NCBI GenBank assembly: GCA_018713745.1
Contig: DVOH01000016.1
Coordinates: forward strand, 15,604-79,603
Length of the DNA: 64,000 nt
Direction of reading: 5' to 3'
From: Candidatus Stercoripulliclostridium merdipullorum
GTDB lineage: Bacteria > Bacillota > Clostridia > Christensenellales > DTU072
The first letter of the stretch is position 1; each line of letters opens with the position of its first letter. Position numbers and translations under genes: made by a program. This document shows positions 21,579 to 33,208 of the stretch, piece after piece. The notes beneath the pieces are model-generated. The model was not told the origin of the DNA. It ran no database searches and was given only the letters and a program-made list of their open reading frames with translations.

Positions 21579-22781
21579 ATGGCGGCTAAACCCGAACTGC
21601 TTGCCCCGGCGGGCAACTTCGCAAAACTTAAGACGGCGCTTGCGTTCGGCGCAGACGCCGTCTATCTCGGAGGGAAGCGGTTTTCCCTCCGTTCTTATGC
21701 CGACAACTTCGATTTCGATACGCTCAAAGAAGCCGTAAGCGTCGCTCACGACGCGCGCAAAAAAGTGTATGTCGCCGTCAATATTTTTTGCAAGGATTCC
21801 GACTTTGCCGACCTGAAAGAAGAGCTGCCACGCTTGCATCGGGCAGGCGTCGACGCGCTGATCGTTTCAGATCCCGGCTTGATTGCCTTTGCCAAAGAAT
21901 CGGTCCCCGATCTCGCGTTGCATCTTTCGACGCAGGCAAATACCCTCAATTCGCACGCCGTGCGGTTTTGGCATCGGCAAGGGGTGGAGCGCGTCGTTCT
22001 GGCGCGGGAGCTGTCGGCGGATCAGGTCAAAGCGATCAAGGACGCCGTTCCCGAAATGGAGATCGAGTGCTTTGTGCACGGCGCGATGTGCATTTCGTAT
22101 TCGGGCAGATGCCTGTTGTCCAATTATCTTGCCCGACGCGACGCCAATCGCGGGGAATGCGTACAAGCGTGCCGATGGCACTTCCGCGTTTCGGAGGGCG
22201 ACAACGCGCTCGAACTCGAAGAGGACGCGCGCGGTACCTATCTTCTCAACAGCAAAGATCTCAATTTGATCGACCGCATCCCCGCTCTGATCGAAGCGGG
22301 GGTCGACTCCTTCAAAATCGAAGGACGGATGAAATCGGAGTATTATGTCGCAACGGTAACCGAGGCGTATCGTCGCGCAATCGACGCCGTACTCGGCGGC
22401 GGCGCTGTGCCGAAGTCGTCGGTCGAGCTTCTCGAAAACGTTACGCATCGCCCCTATACGCATGCCTATTTCGACGGCGACAACGCGGCGACCGTTTCGT
22501 ACGACGACAGCCAGCAGGGCGGGAAGGGCGTATTTGTCGCGGTCGTGCTGGGGGCGGAAGGTAAGACGGCTCTGGTCGAAATGCGCAACCGCTTCCGCGA
22601 CGGCGAAACGTTAAAGGTGCTGTCGCCGCAGTATTCCGCGGATCTTGACGTTACCGTCCGGAATCTGCGGGACGCGGAAGGCACTCCCGTAGCCGACGCC
22701 AAACTGGTACAGCAACAACTGTATTTCGACAGCGATTTGTCGCTGACGAAGGGAGATATTTTGTATCGGAGATCGGTTTGA
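21579..22781 (+). CDS. U32 family protein (peptidase U32 / prephenate-dependent hydroxylase family), short form
   Basis: 400-aa ORF starting MAAKPELLAPAGNFAKLKTALAFGADAVYLGG..., with E..VHGA.C.SYSGRC and a Cys cluster (RGECVQACRW) typical of U32. Confidence 0.85.
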   Translation: MAAKPELLAPAGNFAKLKTALAFGADAVYLGGKRFSLRSYADNFDFDTLKEAVSVAHDARKKVYVAVNIFCKDSDFADLKEELPRLHRAGVDALIVSDPGLIAFAKESVPDLALHLSTQANTLNSHAVRFWHRQGVERVVLARELSADQVKAIKDAVPEMEIECFVHGAMCISYSGRCLLSNYLARRDANRGECVQACRWHFRVSEGDNALELEEDARGTYLLNSKDLNLIDRIPALIEAGVDSFKIEGRMKSEYYVATVTEAYRRAIDAVLGGGAVPKSSVELLENVTHRPYTHAYFDGDNAATVSYDDSQQGGKGVFVAVVLGAEGKTALVEMRNRFRDGETLKVLSPQYSADLDVTVRNLRDAEGTPVADAKLVQQQLYFDSDLSLTKGDILYRRSV

Positions 22782-22793
22782 TTGCAAAATCGC

Positions 22794-22822
22794 TTGACAA
22801 CTCCGCTCAAAAGGAATATGAT
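22794..22822 (+). promoter_or_regulatory. Sigma-A type promoter of the aro operon leader
   Basis: TTGACA 22794-22799, 17 nt, TATGAT 22817-22822. The leader-peptide ATG (22829) lies 6 nt after the -10, so the predicted start of transcription is at or next to the A of the ATG. Confidence 0.5.
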
Positions 22823-30606: not shown

Positions 30607-31040
30607 AAATACTTTGTCTGCACGGACCCAACCTCAATTTGCTCGGCATTCGCGAACCCGATCTGTACGGGGATCGCTCTTATCGCGCGCTGATTGCGTT
30701 TGTGCGGCGCGTCGCCGCGGAGCAGGGCGTTTCGATCCGTTGCAAACAGACCAATCACGAAGGAAAACTCGTCGATTGGATTCAGAAAGCGCGGGGACGT
30801 TATGACGGGATCGTCATCAACGCCGGCGCATATACCCATACCTCGGTCGCCGTTCTCGACGCCTTGAAAGCGGTGGGCATCCCCACGGCGGAAGTCCATC
30901 TGACCGATATCGACAGCCGCGAAGATTTCCGAAAGCACAGTTATATTTCGCTTTATGCCGCCGTTCGGGTGGCGGGCGAAGGGTTCGAAGGGTATCGCCG
31001 CGCATTGACGGAGCTGGTTGCGTTATGTCGGAACTCTTAG
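30603..31040 (+). CDS. aroQ: Type II 3-dehydroquinate dehydratase
   Basis: 145-aa ORF [23 protein letters not shown]...QTNHEG...[10 protein letters not shown]. Confidence 0.9.
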   Translation: [145 protein letters not shown]

Positions 31041-33208
31041 CGCCCGCGGGGAATCTCGACAGCTTTTTTGCCGCCGTCAACAACGGCGCCGATGCCGTTT
31101 ATCTCGGATTGAAATCCTTTTCGGCGCGGCAGGGCGCGGACAACTTCGACCGCGAACAATTAGTCCGACTGATCGGAGAAGCCAAATTACGGGGCGTTAA
31201 AGTTTATGTCGCCCTTAATACGATTGTCAAAGAGGCAGAACGCGCCTCTTTTTTCGCGTCTGCCGCCGAAGCGTGGCACGCGGGTGCCGACGCGCTGATT
31301 CTGCAAGACGTTTTTCTCGGCAAAGCGATGAAGGACGCCGATCCCCGACTCGTTTTGCATCTCTCGACGCAAGCGGGCGTCAACAATGTCGCGGGCGCCG
31401 AGGCGGCGAAGGAATTCGGCTTTGACCGCGTGATCTTGTCGCGGGAAACGGCACTGGAAGAAATTGCCGAAATCGCAAAGATTCTCCCCACCGAAGTCTT
31501 TGTGCAGGGGGCGTTGTGTACGGCGTTTTCGGGGCAATGCTATCTGTCGGGATTTGCGGGCGGCAACAGCGGCAACCGCGGCAGGTGCAAGCAGCCCTGC
31601 CGCAAGCGTTACCGCCTGAGCGGTGGCGGAGAAGAGCGGGAGGGCTATCTGATTTCGCTTGCCGATCTTTCGGTCGGGCATAAGATCGATCGTCTGATCG
31701 AAGCGGGCGTTACGTCGTTCAAAATCGAAGGGCGCATGCGCCGTCCCGAATATGTAGCGGCGGCGTGCCGCTATTATCGCGCGTTGCTGGACGGGAGAGA
31801 CGGGGTCGCCGATCTCTCGGCACTGAAGCGCGCCTATAACCGCGGCGATTATACCGAAGGGTACGCGTTCGGGCAAAAAACGGGACTGCTTTCGACGCGC
31901 GTTCAAAACCATATCGGCGAAGAAGTCGGTCGTATCGATCGGATTTCGGGCAACCTTATCACCGTAAGAGGGTATCAAAATCCGGAGATCGGAGACGGAT
32001 TTAAGATTTTGCGGAAGGGCGCGGAGATCGGCGGCGCCGAAGCGGTGCGCGCGGGCGGCGCCGTTGCGATTCGACTGATCGGCAACGCGGCGGCGCAAAG
32101 AGGCGACAGCGTTCGAATTACGACGGACGTAAGACTCAACCGCACGTTGGCCGAGGCAAAACAAACGGTACCGGTGACGGTCGAAGCACGCCTGATCGGG
32201 GGCGAAAAGGGCAGTCTGCAGGCGTCTTGCCGCGGCGTGAAAGCGGAAAGGACGTTTGACGTCGGCGTTGCACGCACGGCGCCGCTCGATCCTCCGACCG
32301 TTGTCGAGATTCTCGGCAAGACGGGGACGTTGCCGTTTACGCCGACAATTTTTGTCGAAACGGAACACGCGTTTTTGCCCCGTTCCGTCCTCAATGCCGA
32401 GCGCCGCGCGTTATACGAGTCCCTTGCCGAAGCCTTGATCGGGGAGCCGCGCCCCTTGCAGGCGGTGCAACCGGCCGAACCTGTCGTCGCGAAGCGTCTA
32501 GGCGGAAAAGTCGCGGTGATCGCAAGCCGCTTTCCGCATGCGGACGGGATCGACGTTGCCGTATTTGCGCCCGACGATTATCGGGACGAGGGGGCAAGAG
32601 AGGCATATTTTGCCGTCGTTCCCGCGGGGAAACGCTATTTGTATCTTCCTCCGTTTTTCAACAATCGCGATCTTGCCGTGTTGCAAGATGCCGTCCGTGG
32701 GTTTGACGGCGTGTATACCGAAACCGCGGCGGGTTATTCCTTTGCCGCCGAAAACGGGAAGCAAGTTTTTACGGGAACGGGGATGCACGTTCTCAACCGC
32801 ACCGACGTTGCCTTTGCCGCCGCGCGCGGCGCCTTTGCTTATTCCAAAGAAGGGACGCTCAAAGAAGTTGCCGAAGGGGGCGGCGACGGCTATTATACGG
32901 TCGGCGGCAGCGTGAAACTGATGGATCTCGTCCATTGCCCGTTCGGAGGGCAATGTTCGGGGTGCAGGCGGGGCAGAGTGTTTCGCTTGACCGACGAAGA
33001 GGGCAGGACGTTTCTGCTAAGACGCGTCAGCTTGTCGTCTTGCCGCTTCGAGCTTTACGACGCCCGACCCCTTGCTTGCGATTTCGAGGGCAATCGTCTT
33101 TATAATGCCGTTCTGCATCCCTTTTCAATCGTCGGAAAGTCCGCCGCCGCCCTGCGCGCAATGCTTCCGGACGCCACGACGGGGCATGCCTTCAAAGGGG
33201 TATTGTAA
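31025..33208 (+). CDS. U32 family protein, long form (N-terminal U32 domain plus extended C-terminal region)
   Basis: 727-aa ORF MSELLAPAGNLDSFFAAVNNGADAVYLG..., FVQGALCTAFSGQC, RGRCKQPCR. Overlaps the aroQ end by 16 nt, so it is probably part of the aro transcription unit. Confidence 0.8.
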   Translation: MSELLAPAGNLDSFFAAVNNGADAVYLGLKSFSARQGADNFDREQLVRLIGEAKLRGVKVYVALNTIVKEAERASFFASAAEAWHAGADALILQDVFLGKAMKDADPRLVLHLSTQAGVNNVAGAEAAKEFGFDRVILSRETALEEIAEIAKILPTEVFVQGALCTAFSGQCYLSGFAGGNSGNRGRCKQPCRKRYRLSGGGEEREGYLISLADLSVGHKIDRLIEAGVTSFKIEGRMRRPEYVAAACRYYRALLDGRDGVADLSALKRAYNRGDYTEGYAFGQKTGLLSTRVQNHIGEEVGRIDRISGNLITVRGYQNPEIGDGFKILRKGAEIGGAEAVRAGGAVAIRLIGNAAAQRGDSVRITTDVRLNRTLAEAKQTVPVTVEARLIGGEKGSLQASCRGVKAERTFDVGVARTAPLDPPTVVEILGKTGTLPFTPTIFVETEHAFLPRSVLNAERRALYESLAEALIGEPRPLQAVQPAEPVVAKRLGGKVAVIASRFPHADGIDVAVFAPDDYRDEGAREAYFAVVPAGKRYLYLPPFFNNRDLAVLQDAVRGFDGVYTETAAGYSFAAENGKQVFTGTGMHVLNRTDVAFAAARGAFAYSKEGTLKEVAEGGGDGYYTVGGSVKLMDLVHCPFGGQCSGCRRGRVFRLTDEEGRTFLLRRVSLSSCRFELYDARPLACDFEGNRLYNAVLHPFSIVGKSAAALRAMLPDATTGHAFKGVL

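Follow-up and report, generated by a model that had tools for sequence, protein, structure and literature searches.

Three described systems of the U32 protein family frame the locus reported here. RlhA (YdcP) of Escherichia coli hydroxylates C2501 of 23S rRNA, giving 5-hydroxycytidine (ho5C), binds pre-50S particles and combines a U32 domain with DUF3656. This co-occurrence has been reported as unique to the RlhA subfamily, about half of whose members have a second U32 motif (such proteins are found in 84% of clostridia) and whose members in Clostridia have long C-terminal parts as the norm (Kimura et al. 2017, PMC5727448). The E. coli protein TrhP (YegQ) and the Bacillus subtilis proteins TrhP1/TrhP2 (YrrO/YrrN) hydroxylate U34 of tRNA, giving 5-hydroxyuridine (ho5U); a U32 motif plus a characteristic C-terminal motif is the TrhP criterion, and the B. 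subtilis genes yrrN and yrrO lie in one operon with the gene for YrrM/TrmR (Sakai et al. 2019, PMC6599085). The third system is UbiU/UbiV, a tandem pair of U32 iron-sulfur (Fe-S) proteins that hydroxylate in ubiquinone synthesis independently of O2. Genetic data support a need for prephenate in RlhA and TrhP activity in E. coli (PMC5727448, PMC6599085), and isotopic data support prephenate as the oxygen donor for UbiU/V (PMC10990095). This use of prephenate as an organic source of oxygen is a recent addition to the biology of U32 enzymes. Here we describe a 64,000-nucleotide (nt) stretch of Candidatus Stercoripulliclostridium merdipullorum (contig DVOH01000016.1; hereafter the window) in which a short and a long U32 gene, S and L, lie on either side of an eight-gene aro operon preceded by a leader rich in Phe and Tyr codons. 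We propose, with a probability of roughly 0.6, that an S-L hydroxylase pair and an attenuated aro operon have been interleaved here and that L now follows aro read-through.

The arrangement is compact. On the plus strand, to which window coordinates refer unless stated otherwise, the open reading frame (ORF) list contains a single co-directional gene array at 12.4-36.2 kilobases (kb). S (21579-22781) encodes 400 amino acids (aa); its stop codon ends at 22781 and the promoter-like site TTGACA-17-TATGAT (22794-22822, 11 of 12 consensus matches) follows at an offset of 13, with 12 nt between, in agreement with the distance given in a preliminary description of the locus. After this site come a leader peptide ORF (22829-22897), a terminator-like hairpin and the eight-gene aro block (23000-31040), which was assigned from Pfam matches and from the gene calls of L164, a 98%-identical contig from another sample whose proteins are 97-99% identical and whose layout is identical. 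The block runs aroF (23000-24019), tyrA (24016-24891), aroB (24878-25915), aroA (25912-27168), aroC (27152-28213), pheA (28251-29390; chorismate mutase plus prephenate dehydratase, with a sub-threshold ACT match), an aroE/aroK fusion (29392-30606) and aroQ (30603-31040). Start codons and junctions were verified, and the junctions within the block are, in gene order, -4, -14, -4, -17, +37, +1 and -4 nt. L (31025-33208, 727 aa) begins inside aroQ. As previously described, the overlap is 16 nt, and exactly so (ATGTCGGAACTCTTAG); the L start codon is backed by homologue N-termini, which align from residue 1-3 and in which E3, L5 and P7 are invariant. A terminator scan of the plus strand from 22964 to 33208 identified no convincing terminator. 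Because of the 16-nt overlap, the compact array and the lack of a terminator between them, co-transcription of L with aroQ is very likely, and on this point the preliminary description holds.

The two U32 proteins were compared with RlhA, TrhP, UbiU and UbiV of E. coli MG1655. S matches PF01136 Peptidase_U32 (2e-90) and PF16325 Peptidase_U32_C (9e-13), the same Pfam pair as E. coli TrhP. TrhP is also its best E. coli match (38% full-length identity; 281 bits, compared with 182 for RlhA and 165 for UbiU), and the Cys motif is kept. Among NCBIfam families the TrhP equivalog NF011996 ranks first for S; the score of 388.8 bits lies below the 534-bit cut-off and counts against the assignment. For two S relatives with 57-59% identity (P0136 and P0195), a Methyltransf_3 (trmR/yrrM-like) gene ends 1-4 nt before the U32 gene. 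Such an association with the xo5U pathway (trmR/yrrM or cmoA/B) is reminiscent of the B. subtilis operon and absent from the window, where S instead starts 6 nt after a giant surface-protein gene. A further difference from B. subtilis is that the partner of S in its relatives is a long DUF3656 protein and not a short YrrN-type one. From these matches S is predicted to be a TrhP-type enzyme, a prephenate-dependent tRNA U34 hydroxylase making ho5U34.

L matches PF01136 (1.3e-57) and PF12392 DUF3656 (6.9e-12), the same pair as E. coli RlhA, which is its best E. coli match (31% identity over 523 aa, DUF3656 included). In E. coli RlhA C169 and C176 are essential and the E161A mutant retains only traces of ho5C (PMC5727448). 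These residues correspond to C165, C172 and E157 of L, which do not vary in alignments of 24 and 47 sequences; C188, C192, C638, C644, C647 and C673 are invariant as well. Equivalents of RlhA C192 and C196 are kept as well, and both proteins have a Cys cluster near the C-terminus. L differs from RlhA in length, having 74 aa more and an additional alpha/beta domain, and in the setting of its gene: in E. coli, rlhA is flanked by sutR (upstream) and yncJ (downstream), neither of them an aro gene. The preliminary description had called the substrate of the long form not obvious. This view does not stand, since U32 plus DUF3656 is the RlhA hallmark; L is, by its architecture, RlhA-type, and its most likely substrate is C2501 of 23S rRNA (ho5C2501).

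Like UbiU and UbiV, S and L are U32 proteins with a link to prephenate, and in relatives they form a tandem pair. They differ from UbiU/UbiV in their extra C-terminal domains and lie far under the NCBIfam cut-offs: S scores 207 bits on the UbiU model (cut-off 440) and 58 on the UbiV model (cut-off 275), and L scores 155 on the UbiU model. A scan of adjacent genes turned up no UbiT/SCP2 neighbour. Ubiquinone synthesis is not known from Clostridia.

The Pfam names, together with the description of DUF3656 as "Collagenase", could be taken to mean that S and L are true collagenase-type peptidases unrelated to prephenate, and collagenolytic activity has been reported for the U32 proteins PrtC of Porphyromonas gingivalis and HP0169 of Helicobacter pylori (cited in PMC5727448). 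We consider this highly improbable. PrtC and HP0169 belong to other U32 subfamilies (PMC5727448), both window proteins retain the Fe-S cysteines, and the genomic partners of these genes are trmR, each other and aro genes; by eye, with no predictor run, no signal peptide was noted at either N-terminus.

Several observations weigh against the RlhA assignment of L. Distances between U32 domains are about equal from L to TrhP (1.15) and to RlhA (1.23). In a neighbour-joining tree of 156 U32 domains, E. coli RlhA falls together with all 133 long forms, apart from TrhP and the short forms; this grouping has a bootstrap value of 34, the deep nodes range from 0 to 34, and UbiU is misplaced inside the long-form/RlhA group, so that the domain tree leaves L and E. 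coli RlhA unresolved. Because of these deep nodes, the assignment of L to RlhA rests on architecture. NCBIfam cannot tell RlhA and TrhP apart: it lacks a model for RlhA, and its TrhP model gives 172 bits to E. coli RlhA itself. Finally, the C-terminal cysteines of L are spaced CX5CX2CX25C, compared with CX7CX30CX2C in E. coli, where C580 and C611 are the essential C-terminal cysteines (PMC5727448), and the two tails give no BLAST alignment. Judged by architecture, both window proteins are ordinary members of known U32 hydroxylase subfamilies.

The AlphaFold 2 prediction for L (mean predicted local distance difference test score 89, predicted template modelling score 0.90) comprises an N-terminal barrel, a beta-rich middle part (DUF3656), a second alpha/beta domain (residues 496-635) and, at 638-694, a small Cys4 domain, a beta domain bearing four invariant cysteines (C638, C644, C647 and C673). 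In this model the Cys4 domain may form a second metal or Fe-S site, with a spacing unlike that of E. coli RlhA. In orthologues, among them that of locus L011, a purpose-built U32 hidden Markov model detects this additional alpha/beta domain as another U32 motif; in L the motif is degenerate. Foldseek comparison of the model with the PDB returned the U32 protein fragment Mk0906 as the top match and otherwise generic triosephosphate isomerase (TIM) barrels, and PDB sequence searches found no solved relative.

To place the arrangement in context we turned to relatives of each part. In the closest relatives of S (57-60% identity), S and L are adjacent and form an overlapping pair (L011, L165, L166, L169 and L170). 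A second S-L pair subfamily, with L of ~680 aa and S of ~395-405 aa, is present in L053, L055, L066, L068 and L069, most of them labelled Acutalibacteraceae. Conversely, the same eight-gene aro block in the same order is found in three loci encoding relatives of the AroE/K fusion with 48-54% identity (L173, L175 and L176), and there no U32 gene lies beside it on either side. The preliminary description treated the two U32 genes as bracketing the operon. The layout bears this out, and since the U32 genes are adjacent and the aro block is separate in relatives, the bracket reads from these comparisons as one event rather than two coincidences: the aro block came to lie inside an S-L junction. 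A type III glutamine synthetase gene lies near the pair in L011 and L165, and the L165 copy shares 67% identity with the one that the window has at 10065-12185, upstream of S. A repeat search around the aro block for insertion scars or mobile-element ends returned only paralogous U32 segments, and in base composition the block is like its flanks, with no sign of foreign origin.

Many tblastn matches in these searches were limited to residues 1-285 and were considered as short YrrN-like proteins. Extraction of the ORFs ruled this out: they are long forms of ~680 aa with divergent C-terminal halves. In relatives of the window subfamily, the pair is invariably followed by a gene for a ~445-466-aa protein that matches the PHP domain weakly (L011 9273-10673, L165 11528-12862 and L169 11386-12732); a tblastn search of the window for this protein was negative.

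The recurrence of S-L overlapping tandems in two subfamilies also suits another reading, in which S and L are subunits of one heterodimeric hydroxylase and L serves as the partner of S rather than as a separate rRNA hydroxylase. UbiU and UbiV reportedly form such a heterodimer. Equally in line with it, both TrhP1 and TrhP2 are required in B. subtilis (PMC6599085), and the U32 domain of L is no nearer to E. coli RlhA than to TrhP. Yet many L genes are solitary, lacking an S gene within 10 kb (L004-L009, L084 and L085), and beside trmR an S gene is found without L (L167 and L171). E. coli TrhP and RlhA, moreover, have different RNA substrates and genes at separate loci, and L bears the DUF3656 hallmark of RlhA. 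We consider a heterodimeric hydroxylase quite improbable.

The preliminary description called for a survey of how often U32 genes are embedded in aro operons. We examined 80 genome and 80 metagenome loci encoding L relatives, with flanks of up to 10 kb, using all window aro proteins as queries; 116 of the loci had at least 3 kb upstream, and 56 of these 116 encode clear long forms. Aro genes adjoin a U32 gene in one of the 160 other loci and in none of the closest relatives, so the linkage is rare. The exception, L046, is an Eubacteriaceae metagenome-assembled genome in which S (396 aa), aroA, an aroC::aroK fusion, L (678 aa) and ogt follow one another at 6013-12480 with overlaps of 4-26 nt; its U32 proteins show the U32 plus U32_C and U32 plus DUF3656 architectures, respectively. 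This operon has a plain promoter and is without an attenuator. Its fusion of chorismate synthase with shikimate kinase, 526 aa long, is unusual in itself. The L protein of L046 groups with those of L055, L066 and L068 (bootstrap 77), and the window L belongs to a clade of 11 (bootstrap 94). Because it involves the other pair subfamily and a different aro gene content, the L046 nesting is, by these comparisons, an independent event. Weaker proximities were also recorded: two Geobacter-type loci have aroF at a distance of 3-4 kb, L074 has tyrA-aroF on the opposite strand at 7 kb, and three loci have aroK at 5-6 kb. Full-text searches of the published literature found no description of U32 genes within aro operons or of a TrhP-type/RlhA-type tandem.

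This distribution fits a neutral juxtaposition, in which a rearrangement put the aro block between the U32 genes with no selective or regulatory meaning beyond incidental co-transcription. Linkage is limited to one species-level lineage (the window and L164) plus L046 and is absent from 159 of the 160 loci. The closest relatives keep S and L together, or L alone, with the aro block elsewhere; upstream of the nearest relative of L (L088, 67% identity) lies, by eye, the likely 3' end of pheT and not aroQ. The match in composition between block and flanks and the lack of flanking repeats fit the neutral reading too. Against it, both S-L interruptions seen consist of aro genes alone, in different subfamilies and with different aro content. 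If intervening genes were random, the independent L046 case would be unlikely by chance, at ~0.004-0.01, a rough inference rather than a computed statistic that assumes ~10 aro genes among ~2500. The known prephenate requirement also supplies a functional reason for the association. On this evidence a neutral origin is fairly unlikely, and selection rather than drift may have fixed the arrangement. The linkage had originally been offered as support for a prephenate-dependent hydroxylase role. Architecture supports a predicted role of this kind for both S and L, as it places them in hydroxylase branches; the linkage itself, rare and lineage-specific and not a conserved signature, is weak comparative evidence for it. 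Taken together, the arrangement is real, rare and consistent with prephenate-dependent hydroxylation.

The enterobacterial pheL-pheA and trp operon attenuators (Rfam Phe_leader, RF01859) consist of a short ORF with many regulatory codons and, ahead of the first biosynthetic gene, an antiterminator hairpin and a terminator hairpin that exclude each other; the window has the same elements. A scan for promoters and terminators covered 21000-36500 (15.5 kb), and within this region the TTGACA-17-TATGAT site at 22794 was the best sigma-70-like match. The leader peptide ORF at 22829-22897 (MNTAKIFAYEYFYFKGFYFTKS) has Phe or Tyr at 9 of its 22 residues. The terminator scan and folding place an attenuator terminator at 22944-22972, formed by an 8-bp GC-rich hairpin (22944-22964) and a U run to 22972, and folding identifies an alternative antiterminator that uses 22888-22910. 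The leader RNA is more stable than shuffled sequences (z = -3.6). In constrained in silico folds, a ribosome at leader codons 12-17 gave the antiterminator, and a ribosome at the stop codon, or none, gave the terminator.

Comparative analysis supported this prediction. Homologous leaders rich in Phe and Tyr, each followed by a terminator, lie 5' of aroF in four related operons (MNDNRNTFAYFYFKGFYI, MTNKLYFAIGYFYFSSFYFKS, MKLSAKLTAKYFPYYFSFTYFYGK... and MKNNVFTAAYFYFYFIK); the homologous regions are 3294-3524 in L173, 3402-3648 in L175, 3410-3620 in L176, 3200-3480 on the minus strand in L074 and 22794-22999 in the window. An equivalent TTGACA motif is visible by eye 5' of the leader in L173 and L074. 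The Phe/Tyr attenuator of the preliminary description is thus, on the evidence of conserved leaders and switching folds, real and conserved. The relatives have a Shine-Dalgarno sequence; in the window the leader ATG lies only 6 nt past the -10 box, which is why its mRNA is probably leaderless. The aro leader belongs to no Rfam family (Phe_leader gave 14 bits against a gathering score of 55) and appears to represent an uncurated class of ribosome-mediated attenuator. An Rfam search of L046, L011, L165 and L169 found nothing. T-boxes are the usual device in Clostridia. Compared with the enterobacterial attenuators, the window leader mixes Phe and Tyr codons and precedes an operon that runs from the shikimate pathway to prephenate and includes a predicted RNA-modification gene.

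The suggestion that the attenuator tunes a U32 enzyme applies to one of the two genes. S lies upstream of both the aro promoter and the attenuator, and so cannot be tuned by it; the attenuator can control L only. L, being downstream and overlapping aroQ, should follow aro read-through. A promoter-like site within aroE/K (TTGCAA-17-TATAAT, 30394-30422, 10 of 12 consensus matches, ~180 nt 5' of aroQ) argues against this dependence, as it could drive aroQ-L independently of the attenuator. If L were transcribed mainly from this or another internal promoter, the attenuator would not control it. The scanned region contains 14 promoter-like sites, compared with 5.6 +/- 2.6 in shuffled sequences, an excess that lends the idea some weight. 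The aroE/K site, on the other hand, falls within coding sequence and is one among numerous matches to the consensus, and the 16-nt overlap together with the -4 and +1 junctions favours coupled expression. We regard internal transcription as the main source of L as rather improbable.

Under the interleaving that we propose, the first unit would be a TrhP-type and an RlhA-type Fe-S enzyme, encoded as an overlapping tandem in related Clostridia and making ho5U34 and ho5C2501. The second would be the eight-gene aro operon, which covers the route from 3-deoxy-D-arabino-heptulosonate 7-phosphate (DAHP) synthase to chorismate, chorismate mutase/prephenate dehydratase and prephenate dehydrogenase, and has its own promoter and Phe/Tyr-codon attenuator. 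Placement of the second unit exactly at the junction of the first would have severed L from the promoter of the pair and left it translationally coupled to aroQ. L synthesis would then be high when charged tRNA-Phe and tRNA-Tyr are scarce and the prephenate pathway is induced, and low when Phe and Tyr are plentiful, so that the amount of L would be matched to the supply of its presumed co-substrate; S would stay outside attenuator control. The RlhA-type enzyme would probably be made only when the aro operon is on.

A bolder version of this reading would make C2501 hydroxylation a read-out of aromatic amino acid and prephenate status through a ribosome-sensed attenuator, with the gene pairing reflecting a TrhP-type/RlhA-type complex that shares one prephenate pool and the twofold nesting of aro genes marking selection for oxygen-donor channelling or co-dosing. 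We hold this to be doubtful. If it were true, the modification state of the ribosome would be set by an attenuator that the ribosome itself senses. Irrespective of this extension, the arrangement links chorismate/prephenate enzymes with an RlhA-type gene and, in L046, with the two U32 genes, which is context evidence that is independent and non-proteobacterial, and it yields a testable regulatory hypothesis, namely that rRNA hydroxylation follows Phe/Tyr attenuation. The TrhP-type/RlhA-type tandem recurs in gut Clostridia, an observation absent from the papers searched. What is new at this locus is the arrangement and its predicted regulatory consequence; it involves no new enzyme family and no new mechanism, and its attenuator follows a classical design.

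Several neighbouring features were also recorded. The gene upstream of S (12462-21572) encodes a surface protein of 3036 aa with at least eight MBG_2 repeats (eight Pfam MBG_2 matches) and a hydrophobic C-terminal stretch resembling a membrane anchor. The stop codon of this gene is part of a TATAAT sequence 5 nt before the ATG of S, and no Shine-Dalgarno sequence is visible for S. The S start may be a second leaderless one in the window, after that of the aro leader, or S translation may be coupled to that of the surface-protein gene. Downstream of L, with 43 nt and no terminator between, a gene at 33252-35432 with its own strong Shine-Dalgarno sequence encodes a 726-aa RyR-domain protein (5e-12) and is possibly the last gene of the transcript; it is also present in L164. 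Weak matches to SLOG/YAcAr, DprA-like and PADLOC ShosA models fall at residues 566-632 of this protein. The 235-nt spacer that precedes purE (35433-35667) contains a promoter-like sequence at 35453-35481 and, ~17 nt 5' of the purE start, a hairpin plus U run at 35626-35650; it matches no Rfam family, even at E <= 1, and looks like a leader or attenuator of the pur operon. Farther downstream on the minus strand, a T-box leader (62250-62481, 114 bits) lies 5' of a gene for a 459-aa pyridoxal phosphate-dependent (PALP) enzyme (60720-62099), which is followed by a DUF2804 gene (59564-60598).

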